Below, piece by piece: positions 4,307 through 49,321 of a DNA stretch of 64,000 nucleotides. Every line of letters begins with the position of its first letter. Position 1 is the first letter of the stretch. The stretch is from a virus (taxonomy: Duplodnaviria > Heunggongvirae > Uroviricota > Caudoviricetes), in IMG/VR virus record IMGVR_UViG_3300029485_000297, one strand, 5' to 3'. The translations under genes and the position numbers were made by a program. The notes beneath the pieces are model-generated. The model was not told where the DNA came from. It worked only from the letters and a program-made list of their open reading frames with translations, and did no database searches.

Positions 4307-5272
4307 TGATTTAGAAGGCACTTGTTTTGCACAGTGTTCTACCAAAGAAAAGGCAGAAAAGGCAATGCAAATTCTTAAAGAAAACGGTTTTGAAGATATG
4401 CTTGAGGTTGAACAAAGTAATTTAAGATTAGACCAGTTAGTGATTCAAGATAAAATAATTCAGTTGTAAAAGAAATTCGCATTTCTTTAGAAGATTGGAG
4501 GAATCAAAAATGAAAAAATCAAACATTAGAGTATTCGGAGAAATAAGTATTGCACATGTGGAAAAGAGAGGTTTATTTTCATATGCGGTTGTAAGGGACT
4601 TTGATAAAAAGGTACTTGCCAAATCTTTTTCATTTAGAAAATACATAAACGATACTATTCGTACAATGTATACAGGAGAATATTACGCAACAGGTGATTA
4701 CATATTGGTTGCTGACACTGTAAATGGAAATAAAGAAATTTATAGATGGCATTGAAACTAAGATTTTTTAGGAAGGAGTGAAGGGAAATGGCAAAATATA
4801 CATGTAGCAAGACAAAGGATGAAATTCTTGAAATTATTGCAGAGGAATTTAGAAAAGTAAATAAGGATTATGATGATGCAATGCAGAACGACAATGATAA
4901 ACTCAAAGAACGGAATCAGGGTAGATATGTAGCAATGTTTGATTTGTTACATAAGTTAGAAATTTATGAAAAGGAGTGAAGCGAAATGACAACTATTGAA
5001 AAGTCAAAAGAGGATGCACGGAACTTAAATGAACTCACGGATCATCTGATTAAGCTGCTTGAATCGGATGACAAGCGGTTCTCATTTGAATTTTGTGCAG
5101 GTGGCACAATGGAGATTTACGACAAAGAAAAAGAAATCGGTTATGCAGTTCACATTGCACCGATTGAATATGATGAGAACGGAAAAGCAATAAATTTATA
5201 GTAACCGCAAGGCAGTTAGGAGAATAATCTACTAGCTGCCTATTTTATTACAAGAAAGAGAGGAAATGAATT

Positions 5273-6715: not shown

Positions 6716-7730
6716 TCAAAGGAAATTGTAATTTACAGTGAATTTTAAGAAAGGTAAAAGGTGATACTATGGCACAGCAAATATATTATTTACACAGCTG
6801 TAATGAATGGAAAGAGTATTCTAGTATGAGACTTCTTTTCATTGGAACATCACAGCAGAAATTAAAAATGAAAATCTCAAAGGAAATTGAAGAAGGTAAT
6901 ATGGAATATTATGATGGTTCGTTATCTCAAAAAGAACAGGCAAAAAGATTTAGAAAAGATTGGGAGACAGAGACAAGAGATATTATTAATTCAAGATTAA
7001 CATATGGAGATTTTGATTATACATATAATAATGAAGAAATGTAATAACCAAATGAAAGAGTACTTTCAAGACTTGAAAAAGGAGTGAGTAGAATGGAATT
7101 TAATCTTACAACGGGAAGTATGGATTTACTTGTAGAATCTATTATAGATGCAGTTGAATCTACAGATGATAGAGATTTACAATTTGAATTGATTAAAACT
7201 ATTCTTAGTGATAACGGAATTGTAGAGATTAAAGATTAAACAGAGAATAAATAAAGGCAGATGCAAATTATTGTATCTGCCTTTTGTAATGGAAGGAGAA
7301 AACGAAATGAATACATTAGAAGATATTTTAATAGCATTAGGAAGTAAAAAACCATTCTTAGACAAGGTAATAATTAATGAAGATGGTGGAAGGCAGCCGT
7401 TTACTAAAGGCGGTGCTAAAGTATATGAAAAATTGACAGAAATCTTATATGCAGTTGGAGAACTTACTCACACAGATATGAATAATATTGTTGAGGAACT
7501 GGATAGTATAGCGAATCAGGATATGTAAGAGGTTTATGAAAAATGAAAACTGTAATGGAAATAGCAAAAAGTGAACGAATTAACAAAGTATGTGTTGATG
7601 GTCATATTGGAGATATAAGACAGTATGACAAGACACCATTTGATAAAAAAGTGAAGAACTATGAGGTTATTAATTCAATTTACAATGAAAAAATGTTGAT
7701 ATGTCAGACCGTATAGGAGGTAAGTGAAAA

Positions 7731-11121: not shown

Positions 11122-11505
11122 ATGGTTGATTTTATGAAAACAGATAAATTAGAAAAATATCTTGATGAGTTATCAGAAGGAACAGATTTTGATTTTAGAA
11201 TATCAGAAATAAAGAATGGTGAAGTTGAGTTATACATGCAGGGAGATAACCCTTGTAATGAGGATTGGTGTACCGAAATTACAATTAAGAATCCAAAGAC
11301 AAAGAAAGAATTAATAGAGACTTTACACGAAAAAATGTGGAAACTTTATGATGATTTTGATGTTGAGGAAGAAACATATCTTATGTTAGAAGCAAAACGA
11401 AACGGATTTCAGGGAGTTCCTGGTGTAGTCGATCTAGTACATAACGAGGAATACAAAGAAAATGCATTGAAAGAGTTTGCGGAAAAATTGAGAGATTTAT
11501 GCTAA
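11122..11505 (+). CDS. hypothetical acidic protein
   Basis: 127-aa ORF after AAGGATGG. Confidence 0.45.
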   Translation: MVDFMKTDKLEKYLDELSEGTDFDFRISEIKNGEVELYMQGDNPCNEDWCTEITIKNPKTKKELIETLHEKMWKLYDDFDVEEETYLMLEAKRNGFQGVPGVVDLVHNEEYKENALKEFAEKLRDLC

Positions 11506-23044: not shown

Positions 23045-24085
23045 ATGAAAGGTAGGTTGATGATAATGTGTTATAAAATAGAAGTGCAGAATAAAAATGC
23101 GGAGAAGCTTAATAAAAAATTAGATGAGTTAAATGCACCACAATTTTTAAGAGATTACTTAAATGAGTTGGAAAGCAAAAACGGAGCGTTAAATTATCTG
23201 GTAGCAATTAAAGATTTTTTACAGTGGTTAATTGAAAATAATATCATTAATAAGAAACTAATTTCTGAAATAGAAGTTTCCGATTTTAATGACCTAAGAC
23301 CACAAAATATTAGTTCATATCTTAGATATAAGGAAACAAATGGAATGTCACCAACCACAACGGAAACAAGAAAAAACATCATTAAAAGTTTTATACAGGA
23401 TATTTATTCATATAGAGAATGTTTGTTGAGAGAACTCTATAACAGTATGAAAGATTTTAATAAACAAATAAAATATAAAGGAATATCTTCTAAAAACAAC
23501 TTAACACAAAAACTTCCAACAGAAAATCAGCTTAATGATATGGAAGAAAAAATAATGTGTAAAAAGGACGAATGTGTAAGGAATAGGAATATTGCTATTT
23601 TTCGTGTGTTAAGAGGAACTGGAATAAGAGAGTCTGAACTTGCTGGCTTGGATTTATCAGATTTGCATTTAGATGAAAATAGTGAATATATTGATCTTAA
23701 TGATATGTCACATATTATGGTTTTACCAAAAGGATACCAAAGAGAAACTGAAAAAAGACCTGTATATCTTACTGGATCTGCTCTGAAAGCATTAAGAGAA
23801 TGGCTAGAGTACAGAAATACATTGAATAATATTGTAGACAAAGAAGCTGTGTTCATAAATAAAAATGGTACACGTACAACAGAGAGAAATATCAAACAGA
23901 TATTTGAGAATTATGGAAATGGTATTACTCCACATATGATGAGACATTATTATGCCAGTGTAATGAATCAGAATGGAAATCTTGCATTTGTACAGCAACA
24001 GTTAGGACATAGTAATGTAAATACAACAGTTAATAATTATGCAAATGGTGCAGTGGGAATGAAAGATGTACTAAATAATATGTGA
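23045..24085 (+). CDS. int: tyrosine integrase (phage integrase family)
   Basis: GIRESELAGLDLSDL box I. HMMRHYYASVMNQNGNLAFVQQQLGHSNVNTTVNNYAN box II. In-frame ATGs at 23045, 23060 and 23066. Confidence 0.8.
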   Translation: MKGRLMIMCYKIEVQNKNAEKLNKKLDELNAPQFLRDYLNELESKNGALNYLVAIKDFLQWLIENNIINKKLISEIEVSDFNDLRPQNISSYLRYKETNGMSPTTTETRKNIIKSFIQDIYSYRECLLRELYNSMKDFNKQIKYKGISSKNNLTQKLPTENQLNDMEEKIMCKKDECVRNRNIAIFRVLRGTGIRESELAGLDLSDLHLDENSEYIDLNDMSHIMVLPKGYQRETEKRPVYLTGSALKALREWLEYRNTLNNIVDKEAVFINKNGTRTTERNIKQIFENYGNGITPHMMRHYYASVMNQNGNLAFVQQQLGHSNVNTTVNNYANGAVGMKDVLNNM

Positions 24086-26946: not shown

Positions 26947-28491
26947 ATGGCAGTAATGTTAGGAAGAGATAAGGTAGTAAAGACACAATTAATGTTAGGA
27001 ACGGTGATTAAGCAGTTTAGAACAAATGTAATCAATAAGAATCATCCATTACAGAGAAAACCTGATCAGTGGTCGGACGAAGCAAAATCTGGACTTGCTG
27101 CCAGTGTAATTAAACATGAAGATATTGATTCAATTAAATTATGTGAACAGATTTACGAAAATAGTTTCACAAACTGGCTTATTGATGGATTACAGAGATT
27201 AACTGTATTGGAAGAGTTTAAAAATAATGTCTTTGCAATGGGAAAATCATTGAGAATGCCTATGATAGCTTATCAAGCTGAAGATGGAAGTGGTAATGTT
27301 GTTGAGTATGATTTAAGAGGTAAGAAATACAAAGACCTTCCAGATGAGTTAAGAGAAGAATTTGATAATTTCCAGGTAGATATAGTTAAGCATCTTGATT
27401 GTACTAATGAAGAGATAGCTTATCATATTGATAGATATAATAAGCAGACAAGTATGAATACAAATCAGAAAAATGTTTTGATGATGTATAAAGTGGTAGA
27501 TTCACTTAAAAGGGTTACAAAGAATAGATTCTTCTTGGACTGTGGTGAATATACAGCACCTGAAAGAAAGAAAGAAGTATTAAATAGAGTAGTTGAAGAG
27601 TCATTAATATTAATGTTCCATTCTGATTCTTGGAAGAAAAACGTAGCTATGGCTAAGTATCTTAATGAAAATGCCGCAGAAGAGGAATTCAATATATTAG
27701 AAGAGGAACTTAATAGATTACAAAAAGTAATAGATCAAGATACTAACGGACAGTTATTTAATAGCAAGAATAGCTTTATTTGGTTGGCAGCTTTTCATAA
27801 GTTTACTTCATATAACATAGAAGATATTAAATTTGCTGATTTCTTAAATGAATTTCAGGGAATATTACATAGCAAGACATTTAAAGAATATGATAATGAA
27901 TCATTTGATACATATGATAGCAACCGAAGCACAAAGGATAAAAAAGTTGTAATGGCTAAGTTAGATATGGTTACTAAGCTTATGGAAGAATATTTACATA
28001 TAAATAAGGAAGAAACTCATTCAGAAATCGAAGAAGTTGTTGAAAATACAACAGAAAACACAGTACAAATTATCTCTGAAACAGAGAATAATACTATGTC
28101 TTCTAATGAAGACGATGAAACAGATAGTAATATATCAGAACAGAATACGGGTAGTTCTGATGTATTACAGTTTGTTCAAAATAGTGTGGCAGAAGATATA
28201 GAGAATGAAGATATAAGTGAATATCAAGATTTTGTTGATGTATATATTGATATAAATTCATCGTTATATAAACAGTGTGAAGCAGCGTTAATGGCATTAA
28301 CAGCTTATGCTTATAAAACTGATAAGGATGAAGAACTTGCAACTTGGATTGAACAGTATCAGAAGAATTCAATTGATAAGACATATAGTTCTTCGCAGGA
28401 AGTAAATTATAGATATATGAAGAGAGATTTTGATAATTACATAAATTTCTTAAATAATATGGAGAAAGGAAGAACAGCTAGTGTTAATTAA
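26947..28491 (+). CDS. DUF262 (ParB-like/GmrSD N-terminal) domain protein with long acidic C-terminal tail
   Basis: HPLQRKPDQWS (QR...W) and LIDGLQRLT (DGQQR-type) motifs. The C-terminal ~150 aa are extremely D/E-rich. Confidence 0.6.
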   Translation: MAVMLGRDKVVKTQLMLGTVIKQFRTNVINKNHPLQRKPDQWSDEAKSGLAASVIKHEDIDSIKLCEQIYENSFTNWLIDGLQRLTVLEEFKNNVFAMGKSLRMPMIAYQAEDGSGNVVEYDLRGKKYKDLPDELREEFDNFQVDIVKHLDCTNEEIAYHIDRYNKQTSMNTNQKNVLMMYKVVDSLKRVTKNRFFLDCGEYTAPERKKEVLNRVVEESLILMFHSDSWKKNVAMAKYLNENAAEEEFNILEEELNRLQKVIDQDTNGQLFNSKNSFIWLAAFHKFTSYNIEDIKFADFLNEFQGILHSKTFKEYDNESFDTYDSNRSTKDKKVVMAKLDMVTKLMEEYLHINKEETHSEIEEVVENTTENTVQIISETENNTMSSNEDDETDSNISEQNTGSSDVLQFVQNSVAEDIENEDISEYQDFVDVYIDINSSLYKQCEAALMALTAYAYKTDKDEELATWIEQYQKNSIDKTYSSSQEVNYRYMKRDFDNYINFLNNMEKGRTASVN

Positions 28492-28677
28492 AACATTGTT
28501 AAAAAGTATTGTATTAAAAAAGAAAATGCAAATTGAAATAATGGAAACCTTGTCTGATATTTGTTTATATATGCAATTAGACGGATTCAAAAAAGATAAT
28601 GGGTATGGTCAATTTATGTATACACACTATAGCAATTTACAGGATATTTTAAAAGAGTATAAGGGAGAAAAATAACT

Positions 28678-28878
28678 ATGCCAGATATTACAATGTGTAC
28701 AAGCAAAACATGTGAAAGAAGAAAACAGTGTTATAGAGCAATAGCAAAGCCAGATAAGATACAAAGTTATGCTGATTTTACTTCGTTATGTGCAGATAGA
28801 GATTTTAGGTGTCAATGGATTGTTACTGACAGAGAAGTACTTGCTGATGATATAAGTAGCTTGTTAGTAAGATGCTAA
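28678..28878 (+). CDS. small Cys-rich protein
   Basis: CTSKTCERRKQCYR...C...C over 66 aa. Confidence 0.4.
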   Translation: MPDITMCTSKTCERRKQCYRAIAKPDKIQSYADFTSLCADRDFRCQWIVTDREVLADDISSLLVRC

Positions 28879-29180
28879 AATACAGGAGAATAATAAAATG
28901 GATAAAGATACAAATAAGCGAAATGAACTTAGAAAACAGTTACAAGCCTTATCAAAGGAGCGAATTATTGAATTATATATTCACTTATTCATGAATTTTG
29001 CTAATGATAAGGATGAAACCGATTGGGAAGATATTAAATAGAAGAGAACAGATTGCACAAGTTTACCGACCTAAACAACCTGCTCAGAGAATAAAATATA
29101 GGATAAACTATATATGTTCTATTATAACAAATCTATTTGGCTAATTCAAGCCAGTTTATCCTATAACAATTAGTCTTTTG

Positions 29181-29257
29181 ACTACGGGCTATTTTGAGTC
29201 CGAATAGTGAGGATTATATCACTCACTGAAAAGTATGTAATTTATATGTAATTTGAA
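29181..29257 (+). other. conserved leader/scaffold element 1 (hairpin - GAAT - hairpin - anti-repeat-like segment - TTTGAAG)
   Basis: Stem cgggct/agtccg with ATTTTG loop, GTGAG...CTCAC hairpin, and GTATGTAATTT complementary to the repeat core AAATTACATAC. Homologous to 29505-29586 and 31188-31268. Confidence 0.45.
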
Positions 29258-29487
29258 GTTTTGGAAGTATATGAAATTACATACTAACAAAATTAATAGA
29301 GATGATAAATGATGAAAGTATACGTTTTGGAAGTATATGAAATTACATACTAACAAAATATCTGGCAACAGAGAGGAGATGTTTCAGTTGTTTTGGAAGT
29401 ATAGTTACATACTAGCAAAATTACATAATATGTATCGACACAAGTTATAAATTTTTAGAAGTATATAAAATTACATCTCATTAAAAG
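29258..29487 (+). CRISPR. CRISPR-like mini-array 1 (4 repeats, 3 spacers)
   Basis: 36-nt repeat GTTTTGGAAGTATATGAAATTACATACTAACAAAAT identical at 29258 and 29324. 30-nt unique spacers. The third repeat is 32 nt with a 4-nt deletion, the fourth is degenerate. Confidence 0.6.
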
Positions 29488-29504
29488 AATATATAAATGA
29501 AATT

Positions 29505-29586
29505 AAAATCAATTCTATTGCGGTAGATTTTACTGCCGAATCGTGAGTGCAATGCAACTCATGAAAATCTATGTAATAAGTTTGAG
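29505..29586 (+). other. conserved leader/scaffold element 2
   Basis: Stem cggtag/ctgccg with ATTTTA loop, CCGAATCGTGAG, hairpin, and TCTATGTAAT complementary to the array-2 repeat core. Ends TTTGAG directly before the first repeat. Confidence 0.45.
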
Positions 29587-29754
29587 GTTTTAGATACATA
29601 TAAAATTACATAGGTATAAAACAAACCTGTTGAAATTGTTGAAGATATAGAAGTTTTAGATACATATAAAATTACATAGGTATAAAACACTTGCGTTGTT
29701 GTACTTGTAAGCTGTTTAATTTTAGAGATATTTAAAATTACAAAAAATATAAAA
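29587..29754 (+). CRISPR. CRISPR-like mini-array 2 (3 repeats, 2 spacers)
   Basis: 36-nt repeat GTTTTAGATACATATAAAATTACATAGGTATAAAAC identical at 29587 and 29653. 30-nt spacers. A degenerate terminal repeat at 29719-29754 abuts the nuclease RBS. Confidence 0.6.
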
Positions 29755-29769
29755 GGAGATTTACAAATT

Positions 29770-31158
29770 ATGGGAAACAATAGAATGACAATTTGTAGAA
29801 AAATTAAATTATTTCCAGTAGGAGATAAGGATGAAATCAATAGAGTATATAACTTTATTAGAAATGGTCAGTATGCTCAATATCAGGCTTGTAACCTGCT
29901 TATGGGACAGCTTATGAGTGAATATTACAAATATAATCGTGATATTAAGAATGAAGAATTTAAGGCAAGACAGAAAGAAATAATGACAAACTCTAATATC
30001 ATATTAAAAGATATTGATTTTGCAACTGGTGTAGACACTCCATCAGCCGTTACTCAGAAAGTCAAGCAGGATTTCAGCACAGCTTTAAAGAATGGATTGG
30101 CTAAAGGTGAACGAACTGTAACAAATTATAAGAGAACTAATCCACTTATTACAAGAGGCAGAAACTTAACTTTTTATCATGAGTATGAAACATATCATGA
30201 TTTTTTAGACAAGATTAATGATTCTGATTTGGCGGTATATGTCAAGTGGGTTAATAAAATTGTATTTAAGGTTGTGTTTGGCAATCCGCATAGGTCATTA
30301 GAGTTAAGATCTGTTATTCAGAATATATTAGAAGAGAATTATAAAGTGCAAGGAAGTAGCATTGAAATTGATGGTAAGTCAATCATTTTAAATCTCTCAA
30401 TATCTATTCCAAAACAACTTAGAGAGCTGGATGAAAATATAGTAGTAGGTGTTGATTTAGGCATTGCAGTTCCTGCTATGTGTGCTTTAAACAATAATCT
30501 TTACGAGAGATTGGCAATTGGAAATGCAGATGATTTTCTAAGAATAAGAACTAAAATGCAAGCTCAGAGAAAAAGATTACAGAAGTCATTACGAAATACT
30601 TCTGGTGGTCATGGTAGAGCAAAGAAACTGAAAGCATTAGAAAGATTGCAGAAAGCAGAAGTACATTTTGTTGAAACATATTGTCATATGATAAGTAAAA
30701 GAGTCGTTGATTTTGCTTTAAAACATAATGCTAAATACATAAATATTGAGAATTTAACAGGATATGATACAAGTGATTTTATCCTGAGAAATTGGAGTTA
30801 TTATAAACTTCAAGATTATATTACATATAAAGCAGCTAAATACGGAATAGAAGTAAGAAAAATCAATCCTTGTTATACATCACAGATTTGTAGTGTATGT
30901 GGTAATTGGGAGTTTGGTCAGAGAAAGTCACAGTCAGTATTTGAATGTGCAAATGAGAATTGTGATAGTCATAAAAAATATGAAAAAACTGGTTTTAATG
31001 CAGACTTCAATGCTGCCAGAAACATTGCAATGTCAACTCTTTGGATGGGAAGTGGACAAGTTACTGAAAAGAGTAAACAGGAAGCAAGAGAATATTATGA
31101 TATCTCTGAAAAATATGAACAAAGTAAGAATGGTTCAGAGAATAATAAAGTAGCTTAA
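29770..31158 (+). CDS. TnpB/Cas12-family RuvC nuclease, 462 aa (compact type V-like effector candidate)
   Basis: RuvC-I VVGVDLGIAVPA. RuvC-II KYINIENLTG. Zinc finger CYTSQICSVCG...CANENC. RuvC-III NADFNAARNIA. N-terminal MTICRKIKLFPVGD as in TnpB/Cas12f. RBS AAGGAG 29753-29758. Confidence 0.85.
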   Translation: MGNNRMTICRKIKLFPVGDKDEINRVYNFIRNGQYAQYQACNLLMGQLMSEYYKYNRDIKNEEFKARQKEIMTNSNIILKDIDFATGVDTPSAVTQKVKQDFSTALKNGLAKGERTVTNYKRTNPLITRGRNLTFYHEYETYHDFLDKINDSDLAVYVKWVNKIVFKVVFGNPHRSLELRSVIQNILEENYKVQGSSIEIDGKSIILNLSISIPKQLRELDENIVVGVDLGIAVPAMCALNNNLYERLAIGNADDFLRIRTKMQAQRKRLQKSLRNTSGGHGRAKKLKALERLQKAEVHFVETYCHMISKRVVDFALKHNAKYINIENLTGYDTSDFILRNWSYYKLQDYITYKAAKYGIEVRKINPCYTSQICSVCGNWEFGQRKSQSVFECANENCDSHKKYEKTGFNADFNAARNIAMSTLWMGSGQVTEKSKQEAREYYDISEKYEQSKNGSENNKVA

Positions 31159-31187
31159 GTGCTACTTAATCAATCGTAAGATTGCAG

Positions 31188-31268
31188 GTGATTTTGCACC
31201 TGAATGGCGAGGTTGTTAATTAATGGCACTCGTTAGAATCTATGTTAATAGTATCTGTGTGATTTGAG
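31188..31268 (+). other. conserved leader/scaffold element 3
   Basis: Stem caggtg/cacctg with ATTTTG loop, then GAATGGCGAGG, then ATCTATGTTAA complementary to the downstream repeat core TTAACATAGAT. Ends TTTGAG. Confidence 0.4.
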
Positions 31269-31370
31269 GTTTTAGATATGTTTAATTTAACATAGATACA
31301 AAACACGGTTAAGACAACATTTTACTCAGTAAAATGATTATTCAATATAGATACTACAGAAATGTTGAGA
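31269..31370 (+). CRISPR. CRISPR-like mini-array 3 (1 repeat, 1 spacer, degenerate repeat)
   Basis: GTTTTAGATATGTTTAATTTAACATAGATACAAAAC relates to the array-2 repeat. A 30-nt spacer follows, then a degenerate copy containing ATAGATAC. Confidence 0.4.
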
Positions 31371-31419
31371 TTATCAAGCTAATGGAAGAAAAATATAATA
31401 CGAAAAGGAGAATAGTTAA

Positions 31420-31581
31420 ATGTCAGTATTTTTTATATTAGTTTTAATAGGATTAATAATTTTATGGTTTCTACTGTCACCTTTATTTGAAAAAATTGGT
31501 AAGTTTGTTATCAATGTTATAAATAAAGTATTTTCGACAGATGAAATAAATAATAACGAAGAAAAGGAGACAAAAGAATGA
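31420..31581 (+). CDS. small single-pass membrane protein (NfeD-like partner candidate)
   Basis: 53 aa with hydrophobic helix FFILVLIGLIILWFLL. AAAAGGAG RBS. Stop overlaps the SPFH start (ATGA). Confidence 0.35.
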   Translation: MSVFFILVLIGLIILWFLLSPLFEKIGKFVINVINKVFSTDEINNNEEKETKE

Positions 31582-48112: not shown

Positions 48113-49321
48113 ATGGAGCAGATCATTAACAGTTTATTAGAAACAGACGCATATAAGCTTTCAATGGGACAGGCTATTTATCATCAGTTTAGCGATTACA
48201 AGACTACTTGGAGTTTTAGATGTCGTAACAAGGATGTATTTTTTACACCTGAAATGGTAGAGGAAATCAAGAGACAGATTAAGTTATATTGTGGTCTGAG
48301 ATTTACAGAAGATGAACTTTCTTATATTGATAATATCAAGTGGATGAAAGGTTCATATGTAGATTTTCTGAGATTGTGGCAACCAAGATATGAAGATTTT
48401 GAAATTACAACAGACGCTGAGTGTGGATTGGCAATTGAGACAAGGGGAACATGGCTTAACACTTCTATGTATGAGATTCCAACTCTTGCTATCGTCAACG
48501 AGGTTTATTTCAGAATGGCTTACAACTATGATGAATTACTTGAAAGTTTCAAGAAGAGACTTGATGAAAAGTATGAAAATCTTAGAAGTGGTCATTGGTA
48601 TGTAGGTACTTTTTCAGAATTTGGTCTGAGACGTAGACTTTCTGCTGAAGCACAGGAGTTAGCTGTTGAGAAGTTTTCACATTTGAATGATACATTGCAT
48701 AGTCCATCTAAGTTTGTTGGTACATCTAATGTATATCTCGCAAAGAAATATAATCTCACGCCTGTTGGAACTATGGCTCATGAATGGATTATGTGTTCTG
48801 GTCAGGGCAACCACAAGCACAATCCAGCATATTCAAACTGGTATGCCCTAGACGCATGGGTTAGAGAGTATGGTGTGTTAAATGGTATTGCGCTCACAGA
48901 TACAATTACAACTGATTGTTTCTTGAAAGATTTTCAGTTGACATATGCAACATTATTCAGTGGTGTAAGACATGATAGTGGTGATCCGATTGAATGGGGT
49001 GAAAAGATGATTAATCATTATGAGTCACTTGGTATCAATCCTAAGACAAAGACACTTCTGTTTAGTGACAGTCTTGATTTTGAAAGAGCTGATAAGTTAT
49101 TCAGACACTTCCATGATAGAGTAAACGTTGCATTTGGAATTGGTACTTATTTGAGTAATGACACAGATGTTCCTGCTTTAAATATTGTAATGAAAACCAC
49201 TAAATGTAACGGTATGGATGTTGCAAAAGTGTCTGATGTAGAAGGTAAAGGTATGTGTAAAAACCCTGATTATGTTGATTATTTAAAGAGATGTATTAAT
49301 TGGAGAATGAATCATGAATAA
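48113..49321 (+). CDS. pncB: nicotinate phosphoribosyltransferase
   Basis: Collinear with E. coli PncB: SLLETDAYKLSM, FRCR, GTSNVYLAKKYNLTPVGTMAHEW, GIALTDTITTDCFLKDF, GVRHDSGDPIEWGEKMINHYESLGINPKTK, FGIGT, LNIVMK..CNG..VAKVSD..GK..C. Confidence 0.9.
   Translation: MEQIINSLLETDAYKLSMGQAIYHQFSDYKTTWSFRCRNKDVFFTPEMVEEIKRQIKLYCGLRFTEDELSYIDNIKWMKGSYVDFLRLWQPRYEDFEITTDAECGLAIETRGTWLNTSMYEIPTLAIVNEVYFRMAYNYDELLESFKKRLDEKYENLRSGHWYVGTFSEFGLRRRLSAEAQELAVEKFSHLNDTLHSPSKFVGTSNVYLAKKYNLTPVGTMAHEWIMCSGQGNHKHNPAYSNWYALDAWVREYGVLNGIALTDTITTDCFLKDFQLTYATLFSGVRHDSGDPIEWGEKMINHYESLGINPKTKTLLFSDSLDFERADKLFRHFHDRVNVAFGIGTYLSNDTDVPALNIVMKTTKCNGMDVAKVSDVEGKGMCKNPDYVDYLKRCINWRMNHE

Follow-up and report, generated by a model that had tools for sequence, protein, structure and literature searches.

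The closest described relatives of the system treated here are the type V-F1 CRISPR effectors RhCas12f1 and CnCas12f1. V-F/Cas14 variants and Cas-phi carried by phages, without cas1, cas2 or cas4 and with compact arrays, were reported in 2020 (Al-Shayeb et al., PMC7162821), and a plasmid survey found V-F enriched on plasmids, as summarised by the 2024 review that cites it (PMC11656645). The locus that we describe lies on a 64,000-nucleotide (nt) stretch of viral DNA (Caudoviricetes; IMG/VR record IMGVR_UViG_3300029485_000297), hereafter the window, and consists of a cas12f gene with two repeat-bearing modules upstream (A and B) and one downstream (C). It is very probably a type V-F1 CRISPR-Cas12f system of a large gut phage, equipped with three guide cassettes, that excludes competing mobile elements. 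To judge from its sequence and from the matches of its spacers, the system probably works, with a rival phage and a small plasmid as its targets.

The likeness to RhCas12f1 and CnCas12f1 concerns the protein (same family at about 42-45% identity, 415-497 residues against 462 here, with the RuvC triad and the zinc ribbon), the residues in contact with the protospacer-adjacent motif (PAM; D77, R117 and R119), the 5'-CCD PAM itself (predicted here from 7 of 8 protospacers) and the trans-activating CRISPR RNA (tracrRNA), with its 5' hairpin, its pseudoknot with the repeat 3' end and its GUGAGG/CUCAC stem. The differences lie in the RNA and in the layout. Indeed, the scaffold is about 75 nt long here against about 125 nt for RhCas12f1, with no counterpart of the distal part of Rh stem 2 or of Rh stems 3-4, and there are three scaffold-array cassettes (up to about six in the relatives L022 and L024), whereas only a single tracrRNA and a single array are described for the Rh locus. 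The 36-nt type II-A-like repeats (GTTTTAGA...AAAAC) and the phage-borne location also set the locus apart from both Rh and Cn. With the phage systems of Al-Shayeb and colleagues it shares a single small type V effector carried by a phage, the absence of cas1/2/4, short arrays and spacers against mobile elements. However, their contigs exceed 200 kb and ours measure 75-186 kb, their Cas-phi is tracr-less whereas a tracrRNA-dependent Cas12f1 is found here, and the present locus has several scaffold-array cassettes and plasmid as well as phage targets.

A sequence-only reading of this DNA had known of no described system with such a layout. For a phage-borne V-F effector without cas1/2/4 this does not hold, given the 2020 report; a multi-cassette tracrRNA-plus-mini-array layout around one cas12f, and a type II-A-like junction in a V-F locus, were not found described in the literature searched, whose coverage is incomplete. 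We consider the cassette organisation to be what is new, the effector family and phage-borne V-F being already known.

The effector gene, cas12f (29770..31158, plus strand), encodes 462 residues with the motifs VGVDLGIAVPA, INIENL and NADFNAARNIA, and its translation bears out the tripartite RuvC signature seen in the sequence-only reading. The RuvC residues are placed at D229 (in GVDLG), E327 (in IENL) and D412 (in NADFN). Across 15 homologues, E327 and D412 are invariant, as are the cysteines C374, C377 and C393, and D229 is nearly so. The zinc ribbon (CSVC...CANENC) departs from the CxxC...CxxC form first proposed for it, since its second zinc-binding pair, CANENC, is a Cx4C. In a PDB sequence search the best matches were CnCas12f1 (8hr5, E=8e-88, residues 21-444) and RhCas12f1 (9nzp, E=2e-81, residues 9-433), with identities of about 45% and 42%, respectively, over about 390 aligned residues; 9nzo, 8j12, 7wju and 7l48 are further Cas12f matches. 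Three RhCas12f1 residues, D77, R117 and R119, are reported to read the PAM (PMC13186708); the first aligns with the D of GVDTPS and the other two with the R-G-R of TRGRN in the phage protein. These alignments place the effector among the type V-F1 Cas12f proteins of the C-rich-PAM clade, and it adds a new member to a known family; its identity to solved Cas12f structures is high enough to settle the fold. The Cas12p 'hacker' family (bioRxiv 10.1101/2025.01.20.633832) was also considered for it and ruled out, its structure 9jfs matching with E=0.002 only.

The stretches of about 100 nt that precede the three repeat sets are mutually homologous. They had been taken for leaders, a reading that overlooked what their fold and covariation indicate: as far as sequence can tell, they are tracrRNA-like scaffold genes, paralogous to one another, and each is fused to its own repeats on their upstream side. 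A terminator-like hairpin (29137..29154, plus strand) closes the upstream gene and forms the 5' limit of the locus. Scaffold A (29173..29257) follows, then scaffold B (29509..29586) and, behind cas12f, scaffold C (31173..31268), all on the plus strand. All three share a predicted fold made of hairpin 1 (loop AUUUUG or AUUUUA), hairpin 2 (GUGAG...CUCAC) and an anti-repeat, which pairs with positions 19-29 of the downstream repeat and leaves the last nucleotides of the repeat and the spacer unpaired. In scaffold A (fold z = -5.7), the hairpin 1 loop is AUUUUG, hairpin 2 is GUGAGG..CACUCAC, the anti-repeat is GUAUGUAAUUU and the junction beside repeat 1 is AATTTGAA; the anti-repeat and junction are AUCUAUGUAAU and AGTTTGAG in scaffold B, and UCUAUGUUAA and GATTTGAG in scaffold C. 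Furthermore, the hairpin 1 loop is complementary to the last nucleotides of the repeat (CAAAAU or UAAAAC), a pairing between hairpin loop and repeat end that has been described as a pseudoknot for Cas12 guide RNAs (bioRxiv 10.1101/2025.01.20.633832). Over its first 29 nt, each scaffold aligns with the 5' end of the tracrRNA that has served in experiments with RhCas12f1 (ACGGTTGATTTAGCAACCGAAGTCTGAGG versus ACGGGCTATTTTGAGTCCGAATAGTGAGG).

Covariation supports this fold. In 31 distinct modules taken from 26 related viral contigs, 91.8% of the paired cells were observed to pair, versus 74.8% after shuffling and 29-45% when the partners were slid. Compensatory changes on both sides were found in 22 of the 32 pairs, among them 8 of the 11 pairs of the anti-repeat:repeat helix and 3 of the 5 of the pseudoknot. 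A covariance model built from the 31-module alignment gave exactly three matches in the 64-kb window, all at modules A-C (29173-29293, 121 bits; 29509-29622, 120 bits; 31173-31304, 110 bits), and it also matches beside cas12f in relatives from Lachnospiraceae genomes. An Rfam scan of 28000-32500 with E up to 1 matched zero families. Each scaffold, about 75 nt long, lies 10-25 nt from its own first repeat on the same strand, so that scaffold, repeat 1 and spacer 1 together could act as a natural single-guide RNA. We also considered that the cassettes might be orthogonal and rejected the idea: the predicted pairing energies of A scaffold with B repeat and of C scaffold with B repeat are about as good as those of the cognate pairs. 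Since non-cognate energies are not clearly worse, the cassettes may be said to co-evolve and their orthogonality is not demonstrated.

The arrays themselves are short. Array A (29258..29487, plus strand) contains four repeats, R1 (29258-29293), the identical R2 (29324-29359), R3 with a 4-nt deletion (29390-29421) and the degenerate R4 (29452-29487, 27/36 to R1), which enclose the three 30-nt spacers A1 (29294-29323), A2 (29360-29389) and A3 (29422-29451). Array B (29587..29754, plus strand) contains three, R1 (29587-29622), the identical R2 (29653-29688) and the degenerate R3 (29719-29754, 24/36), with two 30-nt spacers, B1 (29623-29652) and B2 (29689-29718). For A and B, these coordinates and identities agree with the 36-nt repeats, 30-nt spacers and degenerate end repeats described earlier. 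The arrays escaped Tandem Repeats Finder because each spacer is unique. The last repeat of array B extends into the ribosome-binding site of cas12f, so arrays A and B may be co-transcribed with the effector gene.

Module C is different. The earlier description of three leader-plus-array modules, two upstream and one downstream, holds for their placement and for the homology of the regions that precede the repeats, and it fails for the third array, as module C has one repeat only (31269..31304, plus strand), followed by conserved flank and no spacer. The segment that had been counted as its degenerate terminal repeat (31335-31370) is identical to the repeat at 14 of 36 positions, a similarity that 19% of all 36-mers in the window equal or exceed. 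Moreover, in the relatives L015, L017 and L018 the sequence claimed as spacer C1 is found unchanged after the array, behind one extra spacer and repeat, and C1 is thus array-distal flank. The window consequently holds five real spacers (A1-A3 and B1-B2) rather than six, and module C is, on this comparison, an empty acceptor cassette with one repeat and no spacer. In the sister phages L014, L016 and L019 (around 7610-7700) the place directly behind module C is taken by a tRNA-like sequence instead of this flank.

Comparison with sister phages revealed that the spacers turn over. The same layout, with A and B upstream and C downstream, is found in 20 IMG/VR contigs whose protein is 95-100% identical; six more distant contigs (48-60% protein identity) carry the same kind of cassette, in up to about six copies in L022 and L024. 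In these two contigs (L022:7361-8488 and L024:7380-8449), about five or six scaffold-array cassettes stand in tandem downstream of cas12f, and some of their scaffolds are truncated. In the sister phages L001-L003, the flanks and cas12f show about 99% identity to the window, and the spacers are different. In each of the cassettes, the trailer-end spacers (A2, A3 and B2) are common to the window and these sister phages, while the scaffold-proximal ones differ, and in relatives module C has gained one spacer and one repeat next to its scaffold. Turnover at the scaffold-proximal end is the signature of polarised acquisition, and the arrays are live. One identical 30-nt spacer, GTAAAAGGAAAGTGGTCTGATGCTGATCTT, was found in module B of L002 and L003, twice in tandem in the latter, and in module C of L020; its presence in different cassettes of different phages points to repeated capture of one protospacer or to recombination between cassettes.

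What do the spacers target? Window spacer A3 matches the IMG/VR contigs L054, L055 and L056 at 30/30 positions, with CCT as PAM. In L055, where the protospacer lies at 11154-11183 and which is the only one of these three contigs that was annotated, genes were found for a terminase large subunit, a scaffold protein, an Ig-like protein and an integrase, and the A3 target is therefore a temperate phage. Two other spacers of sister phages match this same element. The spacer GTAAAAGG..., common to three sister phages, was found outside arrays at 30/30 in three human-gut metagenome contigs and at 28/30 in a fourth. These four contigs, L048, L049, L050 and L052 (5.2-5.7 kb, GC 34%), form a second target and encode a Mob_Pre/MobV relaxase. 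Three of the four have terminal overlaps of 40-55 nt, which suggests circular molecules, and their small size, these overlaps and the MobV relaxase identify them as a small mobilisable plasmid. When all 59 spacers were re-scanned against these four contigs, window spacer A2 matched at 27/30, with 19 of the first 20 positions and a CCA PAM; three further distinct sister-phage spacers, from modules A, B and C, and a near-identical variant of the module A one also had matches. Besides A2, the sister-phage spacers that match these contigs thus number four distinct ones, or five with this variant. In L050 the protospacers lie at 1569-1598 and around 4588-4617. At least five distinct spacers of this phage lineage match the plasmid family (for example L050:1-5247). 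Two of the protospacers lie in a 550-residue plasmid protein that has no match in Pfam, NCBIfam or PDB and that may, to guess from its position, be a replication protein.

The flanks of these targets agree with the effector. The 5' flank of the eight distinct protospacers is CCA in five cases, CCT in two and CTA in one, and 5'-CCD is thus found in 7/8, versus a background of 2.6% in the targets (P = 7e-11). This equals the PAM measured for RhCas12f1, 5'-NCCD (PMC10090079). The proposal that the phage uses an RNA-guided nuclease against competing mobile elements is therefore directly supported: the matches of spacers from the window and from sister phages, in a temperate phage and in a small MobV plasmid, have a consistent PAM. 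Of the window spacers, A3 and A2 found their database match in this way and A1, B1 and B2 did not. The 59 spacers, joined, gave no real match to INPHARED phages or PLSDB plasmids; exact IMG/VR scans returned nothing for A1 and B1, and sister-phage arrays only for A2, B2 and the shared sister-phage spacer T04. The locus would provide a well-documented natural case of a phage Cas12f directed against a plasmid and another phage, with targets and PAM readable from metagenomes.

From the folds and from the solved Cas12f structures, a working model can be proposed. One Cas12f would be served by three paralogous cassettes, each with a scaffold of about 75 nt (two hairpins and an anti-repeat) and its own repeat and mini-array. 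The scaffold would pair with the 3' half of the repeat through the anti-repeat:repeat helix, and the hairpin 1 loop with the last 5 nt of the repeat to form the pseudoknot, leaving the spacer as a 3' guide; the first spacer of each cassette may then be delivered in a natural single-guide RNA. A Cas12f dimer bound to scaffold and CRISPR RNA would recognise a 5'-CCD PAM and cut the matching double-stranded DNA, as solved homologues do. Short arrays and multiplied cassettes would hold the scaffold-to-repeat ratio near one. The foreign-element matches and the scaffold-proximal turnover make it likely that the system serves to keep competing mobile elements out of the infected or lysogenic cell. 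Several co-evolving cassettes per effector raise a testable question on guide stoichiometry and processing in tracrRNA-dependent type V systems, and genome editing might find a plausible compact candidate in a predicted nuclease of 462 residues whose PAM is CCD and whose natural scaffold is only about 75 nt long.

Some points weigh against this interpretation. We infer transcription, processing and nuclease activity from homologues. The anti-repeat:repeat pairing is not clearly cassette-specific and so does not explain why the cassettes are multiplied. Spacers A1, B1 and B2 had no match in any collection searched, A2 carries three mismatches to the plasmid copies found, and one protospacer has a CTA flank. 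Finally, no capsid or terminase gene lies within the 64-kb window.

Could the intact nuclease serve chiefly to repress or regulate phage or host genes under RNA guidance, like TldR or dCas12f, and not to cut rival DNA? Domesticated TnpB and Cas12f regulators exist (bioRxiv 10.1101/2023.11.30.569447; PMC13472631), the repeat of module C with its fixed flank could yield a constant guide, and the PAM-distal mismatches of the old spacer A2 would be compatible with such a role. However, the catalytic D/E/D triad is intact and conserved across homologues, and the spacers match foreign elements, some of them perfectly and with a PAM, while no partial spacer match was found in the phage's own 64 kb. 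Rapid spacer turnover is, moreover, typical of immunity, and we regard a mainly regulatory function as unlikely.

The lack of a capsid or terminase gene also bears on whether the locus belongs to a phage at all or to bacterial chromosomal immunity, on a contig that is viral in look only. A scan of genomes with strict peptides of the effector found no locus, and a profile-based scan found 11. The genome-record relatives come from Roseburia, Clostridium sp., Anaerotignum, Butyrivibrio, Lachnoclostridium, Ruminococcus and a Treponema metagenome-assembled genome (MAG), and include Roseburia and Clostridium isolates as well as Lachnospiraceae MAGs, which a chromosomal origin would explain; seven of them have one or two scaffold-array modules beside cas12f. 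Nevertheless, in the eight genome-record loci whose flanks were scanned the neighbouring genes also resemble those of mobile genetic elements, and 26 IMG/VR viral contigs of 7-186 kb carry the locus. In the window itself, where almost all genes lie on the plus strand, we found two tyrosine integrases, one of them at 23045-24085, in agreement with the integrase module noticed before, Cro/CI-type helix-turn-helix proteins, an RNA ligase, a homologue of the superinfection-exclusion protein gp17, many methyltransferases and PHROG matches that include a virion structural protein family. It is because of the IMG/VR membership of the sister contigs and these PHROG matches that we call the locus phage-borne. 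A prophage state reconciles both views, and a purely chromosomal system appears quite improbable. The host is probably a species of Lachnospiraceae or related Clostridia.

Alternatively, the protein and its RNA could be an IS200/IS605-type TnpB and omega RNA, left over from a transposon or, as the sequence-only reading had offered as an option, in the course of acquiring arrays, with the repeats being incidental. Generic profiles tend in this direction, as the NCBIfam guided_TnpB model scored 161 bits and the PHROG label is transposase, but guided_TnpB and the Pfam family Cas12f1-like_TNB (57 bits) are generic TnpB/Cas12f calls only, and the NCBIfam model IS200_TnpB reached 45.6 bits against a cutoff of 425. 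ISDra2 TnpB (8bf8/8h1j) matched with E=0.002 only, when the Cas12f1 effectors reach 1e-81 to 1e-88; the protein search thus placed Cas12f1 far ahead of TnpB, and the protein falls inside the characterised Cas12f1 clade. The RNA also recalls a TnpB, since a scaffold fused directly to repeat and guide resembles an omega RNA and module C ends after a single repeat, in flank. As far as 'functional RNA splitting' in TnpB and TranC is summarised in a preprint that cites it (bioRxiv 10.64898/2026.03.27.714800), the likeness lies in a scaffold and guide-bearing repeat contiguous on one strand, in the first unit of each cassette, similar to an unsplit guide RNA, and in the omega-RNA-like topology of module C; the difference lies in a bona fide Cas12f1, in true arrays with turnover and in a short PAM as opposed to a transposon-adjacent motif. 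Here the guides are array spacers, which undergo turnover and find matches in foreign elements next to a Cas12f-type PAM. Furthermore, no Y1 TnpA family is among the Pfam matches listed for the window, no transposon ends were found, and the identical position of the locus in at least 20 sister phages does not suggest mobility. A TnpB origin of the locus is thereby largely refuted and very unlikely. Finally, the repeats might have been taken for iterons, or for sites at which proteins bind in a replication or partition region, given their AT-richness, their regular 66-nt spacing and the nearby integrase and regulatory genes. This reading is refuted, because the 30-mers between the repeats are not the same in phages of about 99% identity and match other elements with a 5'-CCD flank, and because the repeats co-vary with the upstream anti-repeat.

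With the CRISPR-Cas12f reading retained, the origin of the new spacers becomes the next issue. No Cas1, Cas2 or Cas4 family was found among the matched Pfam families listed (25 of 30) for the 110 window open reading frames (ORFs) of at least 70 residues, in agreement with the earlier statement that the locus lacks these genes, nor within 7 kb on either side of cas12f in the eight bacterial-genome-record loci, among the matched families listed there (25 of 67). An adaptation module, present in some V-F loci and not obligatory, is accordingly not part of what we see in the window, and a phage without adaptation genes must have its new spacers installed in trans.

The junction between scaffold and repeats recalls another CRISPR type. 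Nearly all 31 modules have (A/G)TTTGAG as the heptamer that precedes the first repeat, followed by GTTT (alignment columns 115-125); in the window these heptamers (columns 115-121) lie at 29251-29257, 29580-29586 and 31262-31268 on the plus strand. The 36-nt repeats and 30-nt spacers are, moreover, as in type II-A loci of the S. thermophilus CRISPR1 type. In type II-A loci, the group-1 junction between leader and repeat reads ATTTGAG/GTTT (PMC5382924), and the last 10 nt of the leader and one repeat suffice for integration there, as that article reports from PMC4330368. The likeness has limits: the guide lies 3' of the repeat here, which is the type V polarity, and no cas9, csn2, cas1 or cas2 was seen in the window among the Pfam families listed. 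In type II-A the PAM-proximal end of the spacer points away from the leader, whereas here the PAM-proximal (CCD) end faces the leader or scaffold. A simple hijack of type II-A adaptation with its NGG PAM was considered, as CCN is the reverse complement of NGG; it does not fit, because the spacer orientation is opposite to the II-A convention. At this stage the junction suggests a resemblance of sequence only.

Because the arrays gain scaffold-proximal spacers though the phage has no adaptation genes, we tentatively raise the idea that the cassettes are self-contained acceptor units, which would let a phage without cas1 and cas2 borrow the adaptation machine of its host, of type II or otherwise foreign. 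We hold this idea to be rather doubtful. If it were true, a type V effector would rely for its spacers on an adaptation module of type II or of some other foreign kind, the multiplied cassettes would keep the scaffold-to-guide ratio near one, and the single-guide RNAs would need little processing. Spacer turnover without local adaptation genes, together with a II-A-style motif, makes such cross-type borrowing of adaptation machinery experimentally testable.

The remainder of the window carries further genes of interest. At least six ORFs encode DNA methyltransferases (including 39206-40129), and nicotinamide adenine dinucleotide (NAD) salvage genes (NAPRTase, NAD synthase and an isochorismatase-like gene) are found at 48113-49321 and in the neighbouring ORFs; together these are the kind of cargo that one would expect against NAD-depleting and restriction defences. 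ORFs for RelE-like and PemK/MazF-like toxins are present at 22-489 and elsewhere. The 703-residue product of the ORF at 34377-36488, which has no Pfam domain, matches PHROG 1735 (function unknown) with 850 bits and is a very conserved phage protein. Closer to the locus, tRNA-Gln and tRNA-Lys genes lie at 32494-32644, 1.2 kb downstream of module C. Between them and the cas12f locus stands an SPFH/Band-7 gene (31578-32447), and at least one distant relative in the bacterial genome records also has a Band_7 gene in the neighbourhood of cas12f (flanks L038-L046).

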